A program made the position numbers and the translations under genes. Positions 9,430-10,735 of a stretch of DNA of 64,000 nucleotides are shown here, in pieces (the stretch's first letter is position 1; every line of letters begins with the position of its first letter). The stretch lies in the sequence record PP925828.1. One strand, written 5' to 3'. The notes beneath the pieces were generated by a model. That model worked only from the letters and a program-made list of their open reading frames with translations, ran no database searches and was not told the origin of the DNA. The stretch comes from Escherichia phage SpoonbillGilly.

Positions 9430-9454
9430 CTTAAATAACAGTGTTTCTCACTTC

Positions 9455-9615
9455 GCTTTCTAAATGCAAATCATTCTCATTCGTATTCCAATAGTTAAAT
9501 GAGAATCATTCCGCTAATCAAATGATAACCATTCTCATTCCACTTTCTAAATGCGAATCATTATCATTCGCATTCAACTTTTCAAATGAGAATCAATCTC
9601 ATTATCATTCGCATT
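9455..9615. repeat. about 5 tandem degenerate repeats 'aaatg(a/c)(g/a)aatcattctcatt'
   Basis: read directly; irregular spacing. Confidence 0.7.
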
Positions 9616-9649
9616 TCGGCAGGCAGGGCACCTTCATTTTGCCCTGCGC

Positions 9650-10260
9650 TTTTGTGCAAATCCGACATTTGCCCCCACGGATTACGTGCCAGCGTGCATG
9701 TGCGAATCCGACAATTTTTGGTAGTGTGCAAATCCGATGGGAAATATTTTTTATATGTGCGAATCCGACAATGAATTTTCCTAAAAACTCCAGCAATCCG
9801 CAACTGCGATGCAATCCAGCTGGATTTACTAGAATATGTGCAGAACCGACAAGCGTTAAGGTGTGCGAATCCGACAAGATTTTTGTGACTTCGATGAGAG
9901 GGTGTGTGATTGTGTGAGTTTGTGGGAGAGTTGATGCAGCGAGAGAAAATTAGAGGAGAAACTGGAGGGTGCAGCTGTGGTGGCGTGAAACGCCTGGTTT
10001 GCTGCGTTTTTGGGGATAATGTGGGATGTTTTGGATAGAATTGAGATAAGTGGAGATTCTGCGAAATTTTATTAGCAAAATGGGGCAAAATAGCTTGACA
10101 AGTGAAAATTCCTGCGGCTCTAAAAACTCAGGCAATCATGGGCCTTCGGCCCGAAATAATGCTGCTATTTTCAGGAAAGTAAGAGTTCATGAAAACTTAG
10201 GCAATTGTGCAAATCCGACCATAAATTTCTAGAAACACAATGTGCAAATCCGATAGTAGT
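9650..10260. repeat. dispersed 13-bp repeat family GTGC(A/G)AATCCGA(C/T), at least 7 copies, with an intervening GT-rich purine-skewed stretch (9890-10070)
   Basis: copies near 9654, 9700, 9725, 9766, 9862, 10207, 10240; no protein-like ORF. Confidence 0.7.
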
Positions 10261-10445
10261 TTCCAGAAATGTGTTTTCAAAAAATGTCTCCTAGAAATAA
10301 CCGCCCTCCCTATAACCGCCCTGTATTAAACCGCCTATTGCTGGAGTTTCTAGGAATATGAAAACCGCCTGAGTTGGTGTGAGTTTTCCTAGAAACTTAG
10401 GAGTCTACTAGAAAGTGTTGTGCCATCCTAGGAAGAGCGGCGGCA
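10215..10445. repeat. repeat block of 'ctagaaa/ctaggaa' motifs (about 7 copies) and 'aaccgcc' motifs (4 copies)
   Basis: read directly. Confidence 0.6.
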
Positions 10446-10735
10446 ACAAGTGTATCATCTTGAATGTAAATTATGTGGTCAAAAGTTTTACCTTTTATTT
10501 AAATATAAGATCCCCCCCAATCTCGTAAGTCTGCTGCTCTAGGCGTTCAAGATCTGTATGCTAATCCCGTGATAACTGCTGCAGAATACATCCTAACGCC
10601 AGAGGCGCTGGTGTACTCTTCGAGTTGGGATAGCAATAATCTTGTTGCCTAGAGCTAAAAACAGAAGTTGTTTTTAATCTATGAGATTATTATAACATGT
10701 GCCTTAATGAGTTGTCAAGAATATTTTGTTAACGT

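Follow-up and report, generated by a model that had tools for sequence, protein, structure and literature searches.

By homology, the gene-free interval between the pre-early and early genes of Escherichia phage SpoonbillGilly corresponds to Repeat Region 3 of T5, which is annotated as its injection stop signal

The 64,000 nucleotides analysed here (the window) come from the record of Escherichia phage SpoonbillGilly (PP925828.1) and, as judged from sequence comparison, constitute the left 64 kb of a T5-like phage genome. In a first-pass annotation, made from the letters alone, a dense repeat block at 9440-10700 had been likened to the injection stop signal and terminal-repeat boundary of T5. 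By homology, this interval is the phage's own copy of the T5 Repeat Region 3, or injection stop signal (iss) region, a feature that has already been described and annotated in T5. Very probably it is a cis-acting and non-coding copy of that region, placed between convergent pre-early and early genes and holding the right end of the terminal repeat.

A megablast search with 9100-10800 matched 475 phage records, nearly all of which were T5-like (Demerecviridae, Markadamsvirinae), and the best annotated match was Salmonella phage Stitch with 92% identity across 96% of the query. The first 24 kb of the window were 96.3% identical to Stitch, with base 1 of the window corresponding to base 111 of Stitch. 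An exact 65-mer from 9930-9994 had no match in IMG/VR, and the product of a 333-aa ORF matched no record. When T5 proteins were used as tblastn queries, dmp (90%), A1 (90%) and A2 (86%) were all found on the minus strand within 1-4077 and most other pre-early genes were matched in T5 order. The pre-early open reading frames (ORFs) continue to 9175 and the minus-strand early genes are found from 10736 on, leaving a gene-free gap of 1.56 kb (9176-10735) flanked by convergent ORFs. The location originally ascribed to the block, after the dmp-A1-A2 region and before the early genes, is supported both by the tblastn matches and by this ORF layout. Since base 1 of the window falls at the dmp stop codon, the window lacks the leftmost part of the terminal repeat, some 110-125 nt.

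The interval was compared with T5 in a four-way MAFFT alignment that included the annotated T5 records AY543070 and AY587007. In AY543070 the left terminal repeat is annotated at 1-10219, iss at 9140-10149 and the major nick at 9748/9749. In AY587007, which is about 80 nt shorter at this point, the terminal repeat is given as ending at 10139 and the 7.9% nick as lying at 9661-9668; palindromes C-J, the inverted repeats D' and C' and the direct repeats B, C, D (nine copies) and A are also annotated. A dot-plot against T5 had been proposed as a check on the resemblance; in the alignment the interval was colinear with T5 Repeat Region 3, the annotated iss, and the homology mapping placed neither the repeat boundary nor the injection stop elsewhere. 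The order of the elements is the same in both phages: a terminator hairpin, palindrome D, the IRD'-spacer-IRC' arm with paired DnaA boxes, the DRC and DRE repeats, palindrome J with the nick, the D repeats, the DRA repeats, the terminal-repeat end and more D repeats in unique DNA. Both also have an inverted partner 3.5 kb to the left and the same place after the pre-early genes (AY587007 9194-10409). In T5 this region has been treated by Heusterspreute 1987, in the Wang 2005 annotation and by Davison 2020 (bioRxiv 10.1101/866236), who found the same architecture in 25 T5-like phages, Stitch included, and noted a higher conservation of the region than of the genes beside it. Phage BF23 carries the same region (PMC10644984).

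The copy in the window is nevertheless distinct from that of T5, with an overall identity of ~70%. T5 has nine D repeats whereas seven exact copies and one degenerate copy are present here, 17 nt of the T5 palindrome array are lacking, and the ninth D repeat is absent together with ~46 nt around it. The palindrome J loop is 8 nt longer than in AY587007 and 7 nt longer than in most relatives, Stitch being like the window in this respect. The gene to the right is not shared, T5.018 having no match in the window. Compared to the window, Stitch (Epseptimavirus) has other sequence at 9480-9520 and 10176-10205 and one more exact copy of the D repeat.

All four repeat families named in the first-pass annotation were found in the sequence, three of them far above chance. 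The 13-mer GTGCRAATCCGAY has seven exact copies, all on the plus strand (starts 9654, 9700, 9726, 9757, 9863, 10207 and 10242), and an eighth, degenerate copy at 9838-9850, in agreement with the reported minimum of seven dispersed copies; with one mismatch at most, chance would give 0.21 matches over all 64 kb, and none of the shuffles had as many as nine. For the palindrome AATGAGAATCATTCTCATT, about five tandem copies had been counted. Four copies with at most two mismatches start at 9463, 9521, 9550 and 9585 (span 9461-9603; 0.10 matches expected at three mismatches or fewer), and a half copy at ~9498 brings the total to five units, spaced 23-35 nt apart and arranged as two 76-nt repeats at 9445-9520 and 9532-9607. 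The stretch 9885-10090 has a skewed composition (G 37%, C 8%, purines 63%), with GC skew peaking at +0.54 to +0.61. The motif AACCGCC occurs four times in 71 nt (10299-10369) and 14 times in the window against 3.2 expected. The CTAG-centred palindromes are clustered at 10226-10434, where 8 of the 23 YCTAGRAA matches of the window are located; over the whole window this family was marginally above chance (23 against 11.4 expected, a number reached by 1 of 100 shuffles). The repeat block as such was thus recovered, but not its start at 9440, as the conserved repeat region begins at about 9245; with a start at 9440, a 135-nt inverted-repeat arm containing DnaA boxes (9322-9456) is for the most part cut off.

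Conservation was examined in an alignment of 18 distinct genomes with 52-88% overall identity to the window, and all identities were measured against the window. The non-coding core was better conserved than the adjoining genes, with mean identities of 0.67-0.95 as compared to 0.38 in the left flank and 0.61 in the right flank. Within the core, mean identity was 0.87 for the inverted repeat with the DnaA boxes, 0.67 for the palindrome array, 0.77 for the hairpin and D repeats, 0.70 for the G-rich tract, 0.95 for the block around the cut (selected motif excluded) and 0.77 for 10176-10470, and the block at 10060-10175 was the most conserved part of the region. The copies of the D repeat were more conserved than the spacers between them (0.93 versus 0.76, permutation p<1e-4), the two copies at 10207-10254 having values of 1.00 and 0.93, and the same was true of the AACCGCC copies (0.94 versus 0.76 for the spacers). 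The statement that the block holds no credible genes was upheld: the mechanical ORFs 9522-9917(+), 9582-10088(-), 9605-9877(-) and 10050-10232(+) were frameshifted or stopped in almost all of 17 relatives, and coding potential inside the interval was ruled out by this lack of conservation. As judged from these patterns, the region was shown not to code for protein and to be under selection that acts on the single repeat units. The G-rich tract was present in 18/18 genomes with a length of 204-206 nt, a G content of 37-39% and a C content of 5-9%, at only ~70% sequence identity, which suggests that length and strand composition, and not the sequence as such, are constrained.

These conservation data bear on the idea that the interval merely serves as a termination buffer between convergent operons, or that small proteins are encoded in it, as the annotations of some relatives have it. 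The genes on either side converge, two structures consisting of a hairpin plus a T-run are present, and small coding sequences are annotated here in Seabear, chee24 and GEC_vB_N7. A minus-strand RNA from 9885-10090 would also be C-rich and G-poor, as is the RNA of Rho-loading sites. However, 1.2 kb of sequence that is better conserved than the neighbouring genes would be needless for termination, the terminator scan returned no more sites than in shuffles, and the ORFs of the putative small proteins are broken in relatives. Both versions of this explanation are therefore regarded as highly unlikely.

The right end of the terminal repeat could be placed from the ends of related genomes. When mapped onto the window, the right ends in the records of T5 and L6jm fall at 10120 and that of Stitch at 10125. 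In an independent test, a 24-mer of window 10087-10110 was found twice in each of seven IMG/VR contigs. These have lengths of 118-122 kb and include the database's entries for T5 and L6jm, the other five being of 118-121 kb, and in all seven the second copy was exactly 10 nt from the contig end, which is equivalent to window 10120. A 35-mer of 10140-10174, on the other side of this point, had a single occurrence in every IMG/VR contig with an exact copy, among them T5 and three others of the seven contigs with both repeats. Based on these ends of relatives, the terminal repeat most likely ends between 10120 and 10121, inside the flagged interval, and by homology the right end of the virion DNA would be the same point (~10120). 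The earlier suggestion that the left terminal repeat ends here is consequently supported by homology, whereas the accompanying statement that the boundary cannot be set from one window is not.

The left part of the region begins with a plus-strand, terminator-like hairpin at 9182-9210 (CGGGGC...GCCCCG followed by CCTTTTC), which adjoins the end of the last rightward pre-early ORF and is the homologue of T5 palindrome C (9194-9213), a putative rho-independent terminator. Its RNA fold of -15.2 kcal/mol was not significant compared to shuffles (z -1.87) and it was missed by a simple terminator scan. The palindrome TACTGTATAAATATACAGTA at 9320-9339 is LexA-box-like and the homologue of T5 palindrome D. 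It is followed by the IRD'-spacer-IRC' arm (9322-9456), which has no indels relative to T5 9332-9462 and which is the prime iss candidate according to Davison 2020. The partner arm, IRC-spacer-IRD at 5629-5763, matches the layout given by the same author for T5 Repeat Region 2; the two arms are 135 nt each and 75% complementary. Four DnaA or DnaA-like boxes are found on the minus strand of the right arm (9348-9356, 9360-9368, 9409-9417 and 9421-9429) in two pairs 3 bp apart, and only the last of the four (TTATCCACA) has the consensus sequence. The distant arm similarly contains two pairs 3 bp apart (5656/5668 and 5717/5729); its LexA-box-like palindrome (5746-5765) has kept the CTGT-N8-ACAG core intact. 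Next to the right arm, at 9445-9616, are the five AAATGAGAAT-N-ATTCTCATT palindromes in their two 76-nt direct repeats, which correspond to the T5 DRC copies, palindromes E-I and DRE. Folded as single-stranded DNA, 9440-9660 gave -31.8 kcal/mol (z = -5.2 compared to shuffles). The estimated shear point of T5 first-step transfer (AY587007 9618) maps to about 9591 in the window.

At the end of this left part a second terminator-like hairpin, GCAGGGCA/TGCCCTGC followed by GCTTTT (9623-9653, plus strand, RNA fold z = -2.2), represents T5 palindrome J. It overlaps the nick motif CCCTGCGC at 9642-9649, the homologue of the T5 7.9% nick, and a minus-strand nick is predicted between 9649 and 9650. One relative has a compensatory double change in the arms of palindrome J and the length of the loop varies; for these reasons a hairpin is favoured over a dimer site with fixed spacing. 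The nick motif is conserved among relatives, and its only other occurrence in the window is at 22694-22701, where the T5 18.5% major nick is expected. In the 96%-identical phage Seabear (MK728824), the repeat end assigned by PhageTerm (position 8522) is equivalent to window 9649, exactly after CCCTGCGC, and this read-start peak probably reflects the nick and not a terminus.

The nick predicted at this place raises the question of whether the main cause of the pause is this nick (9649/9650) together with the adjacent hairpin, which would jam the DNA in the connector or tail, with the repeats serving other purposes. Such an explanation would fit with a conserved motif located at the boundary of the first step, and a review (PMC2771126) relates the pauses of in vitro ejection to the nick positions, with single-particle work described there tying the two together. 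On the other hand, many particles eject their DNA in vitro without halting and ejection is completed, and a nick alone therefore gives no stable stop. T5 mutants without nicks are viable, which also weighs against the idea. Other major nicks, for example that at the motif at 22694, are not known to cause a stop that depends on protein synthesis. A pause dependent on the nick and hairpin is consequently considered unlikely.

To the right of the nick, six copies of GTGCRAATCCGAY in the same orientation (9654-9875, plus strand) correspond to T5 DRD copies 1-6, the fifth (9838) being the degenerate one. They are followed by the G-rich, C-poor tract (9885-10090, plus strand) with two DRA-like repeats at about 10009-10050 and by the block at 10060-10175 around the predicted repeat end, with the cut between 10120 and 10121 (...CCTGCGGCTC|TAAAAACTC...). 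An invariant hairpin, GGGCCTTCGGCCC, is located within this block at 10140-10152, and its stability was no greater than that of shuffles on either strand. Two further GTGCAAATCCGAY copies at 10207-10254 (plus strand), in the unique DNA to the right of the repeat end, correspond to T5 DRD 7 and 8. The region is completed by the four AACCGCC motifs (10299, 10314, 10329 and 10363), which are interleaved with CTAG-centred palindromes of the TTTCTAGAAA type (10226-10434).

Motifs similar to these were observed at the other end of the genome. In Stitch-type phages (Stitch 113494 region), CCTAGA, a DRC-like palindrome (GATGAGAATGAGTCTCATT) and ACCGCC are found within ~45 nt inside the left repeat end, and in T5 (111614 region) TAACCGCC is located ~35 nt from the left end, so that the two ends of the repeat have the same motif families close by. 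T5 and Stitch also share a conserved sequence, CATAAGATTACACATGAAGGTG, in the unique DNA that borders the left cut on its left side. A 36.6-kb contig in a bacterial-type NCBI assembly (AAOGQV010000033.1 in GCA_010653065.1), which was the only place where the exact A1 protein was found but which, being 96% identical to the window, is not from the same phage, holds the right end of a T5-like genome: late genes are joined to the terminal repeat and the contig stops at the equivalent of window 10097, 23 nt before the T5-type terminus.

With repeats on both sides of the cut, the whole region might instead be a signal for packaging and end formation, with terminase sites flanking 10120 and no part in stopping injection, the pause being set by, for example, capsid or tail proteins. 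The arrangement of the D repeats, six of them 245-466 nt to the left of the cut and two 87-134 nt to the right, would be expected from this explanation, as would the location of the most conserved block (0.95) around the cut and the presence of ACCGCC, CCTAGA and the DRC-like palindrome, or in T5 TAACCGCC, near the left ends described above. The left third of the region (9320-9650) is more difficult to account for, as it is 470-800 nt from the cut, has an inverted copy 3.5 kb away that would be needless for a cut-site signal, and contains the point at which the measured first-step length of T5 falls. As an explanation of the entire region a packaging signal is thus fairly unlikely; for the right half it overlaps and is compatible with the reading preferred here, in which that half would serve the formation of genome ends. 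Similar layouts are known from the direct terminal repeats and concatemer-junction processing of T7-like phages and from the pacL-pacC-pacR arrangement of SPP1. The likeness, which is one of analogy, consists of a cut in unique sequence at the end of a direct terminal repeat with short repeated motifs on both sides, and it differs from homology in that no sequence relationship exists.

The DnaA boxes suggest yet another possibility, a replication origin of the oriC or plasmid iteron type. In support of this, the two arms together carry eight DnaA or DnaA-like boxes in four pairs, eight 13-mers are present in the same orientation and the palindromes are AT-rich; the likeness to oriC was also remarked upon by Davison 2020. 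However, electron microscopy studies cited in that paper put the origins of T5 close to the centre of its genome, and the first-step DNA does not carry the replication genes (Davison 2020). In addition, no initiator-like gene flanks the region and only one consensus box is present in it. An origin at this location is very improbable.

The explanation preferred here is a composite one, in which the two halves of the region have different functions, and none of the four rival explanations accounts equally well for the whole pattern. In this reading the genome would enter the cell with its left end first and transfer would pause with the DNA around 9450-9650 at the cell envelope. During the pause the inverted repeat with its DnaA- and LexA-like boxes, the palindrome array, the hairpin and the nick would be located at or just inside the entry point, and they could act as a protein-bound or structured obstacle until it is released by the pre-early proteins A1 and A2. 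The stop is viewed as most likely a nucleoprotein or structural roadblock at 9320-9650. In the proposal of Davison 2020, membrane-bound DnaA holds the boxes and A1/A2 then cut or release the DNA. The right half (~9650-10470), that is the D repeats flanking the cut, the G-rich tract, the 95%-conserved block at 10120 and the AACCGCC/CTAG block, would serve genome-end formation and packaging, probably as the place where terminase recognises and cuts the concatemer junction. Rightward pre-early transcription would end at the two hairpins (9182-9210 and 9623-9653). The distance from the presumed pause point (9600-9650) to the conserved right block (10205-10440) is 600-800 bp, equivalent to ~200-270 nm of B-DNA. 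This is close to the tail length of ~250 nm quoted for BF23/T5, and the right block could for that reason, on a speculative and rather unlikely reading, sit at the head-tail connector during the pause.

Several observations weigh against this explanation or parts of it. The DnaA boxes have no footprint of their own, being conserved at 0.90 as compared to 0.88 for the rest of the inverted repeat, their variable positions are located in the CACA part and only 1/4 of the boxes here is consensus. The annotated repeat ends differ between records, as those of chee24, 100268_sal2 and the Seabear PhageTerm analysis map to 9912, 10067 and 9649, respectively, and the depositors of some records that end at 10120 may have followed the example of T5; the boundary given above is placed from relatives and not from the right repeat of this genome itself. 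With regard to packaging, no obvious motif was shared between the left and right cut sites, and the role of terminase is suggested by analogy. Two-step transfer in this phage is likewise assumed from its relatedness to T5, and in T5 papers of 2023 and 2026 the stop mechanism is still called unresolved.

As regards which proteins might bind in the stop region, the sequence offers two leads in addition to DnaA. The LexA operator consensus is a 20-bp palindrome, TACTG(TA)5CAGTA, with a CTGT-N8-ACAG core. TACTGTATAAATATACAGTA at 9320-9339 has one mismatch to the E. coli SOS (LexA) box consensus, and no matches would be expected at three mismatches or fewer (shuffles). The CTGT and ACAG arms of palindrome D were kept in 14/16 alignable relatives, with variation in the centre only. 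The LexA-like palindromes at 9320-9339 and 5746-5765 are located at the outer ends of the two inverted-repeat arms, which enclose the rightward pre-early operon between them, and promoter-like matches overlapping the LexA-like box were weak only. Palindrome D of T5 thus resembles a near-perfect LexA box and is a candidate site. LexA is not mentioned in Davison 2020, nor was it in any match of a full-text search, a check that covered neither Heusterspreute 1987 nor the 2015 review by Davison.

The second lead is a concentration of Fur-like sites. With the Fur consensus GATAATGATAATCATTATC (PMC4506495) and a threshold of at least 14/19, Fur-like 19-mers were found at 14 positions in 1-10120, whereas shuffles had a mean of 1.0 and a maximum of 3 (~14-fold); the remaining 54 kb contained 5 against a shuffle mean of 3.2. 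The sites in 1-10120 include 105-129, 4102, 6151-6172, 7307-7343, 8894-8924 and 9460-9606, and the best of them, GATATTGATAATCATTCTC at 8900 (17/19), is just upstream of the last pre-early ORF. The palindromes of the array match the consensus at 13-15/19, with a symmetric T-to-G difference. A specific form of the roadblock could be imagined in which the stop region is a landing pad for abundant host proteins at the LexA-like box, the DnaA-like boxes and the five Fur-like palindromes, perhaps in a complex bridging the arms of the inverted repeat, and A1/A2 dismantle or cut this complex; this form is speculative and decidedly unlikely. Release triggered by the SOS response, with LexA cleavage restarting transfer, was set aside since A2 mutants degrade host DNA yet fail in second-step transfer. 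The growth of T5 on recA strains also weighs against such a trigger.

A scan of the repeat core for terminators and promoters returned nothing convincing beyond shuffles, with the exception of a minus-strand sequence at 10689-10718 that matches a sigma-70 promoter perfectly (TTGACA, 18 nt, TATAAT, with an upstream TG). This putative promoter comes directly after the end of the leftward early ORF, past its stop codon, and is aimed into the repeat region, where no ORF is obvious downstream of it. Stitch/chee24-type relatives have it too, and some others have a TATCAT variant. An Rfam search of 8800-11200 gave only a match at chance level (E 0.74) and no family was assigned.

The feature was already known, and the window contains one more, slightly divergent copy of it and no new kind of element. 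How T5 halts its DNA after ~8% entry is a question that dates from 1968 and concerns the mechanism of the element rather than its existence. For a Stitch-like phage the present analysis provides a base-level map, with stop candidates at 9320-9650, a predicted nick at 9649/9650 and, by homology, the end of the repeat at 10120. Three leads also emerge from it: the near-consensus LexA box, the palindromes that resemble Fur sites, and the G-rich tract, whose length and composition are fixed. A practical point is that the annotated repeat ends disagree among T5-like records and that one end assigned by PhageTerm is probably the nick and not the terminus.

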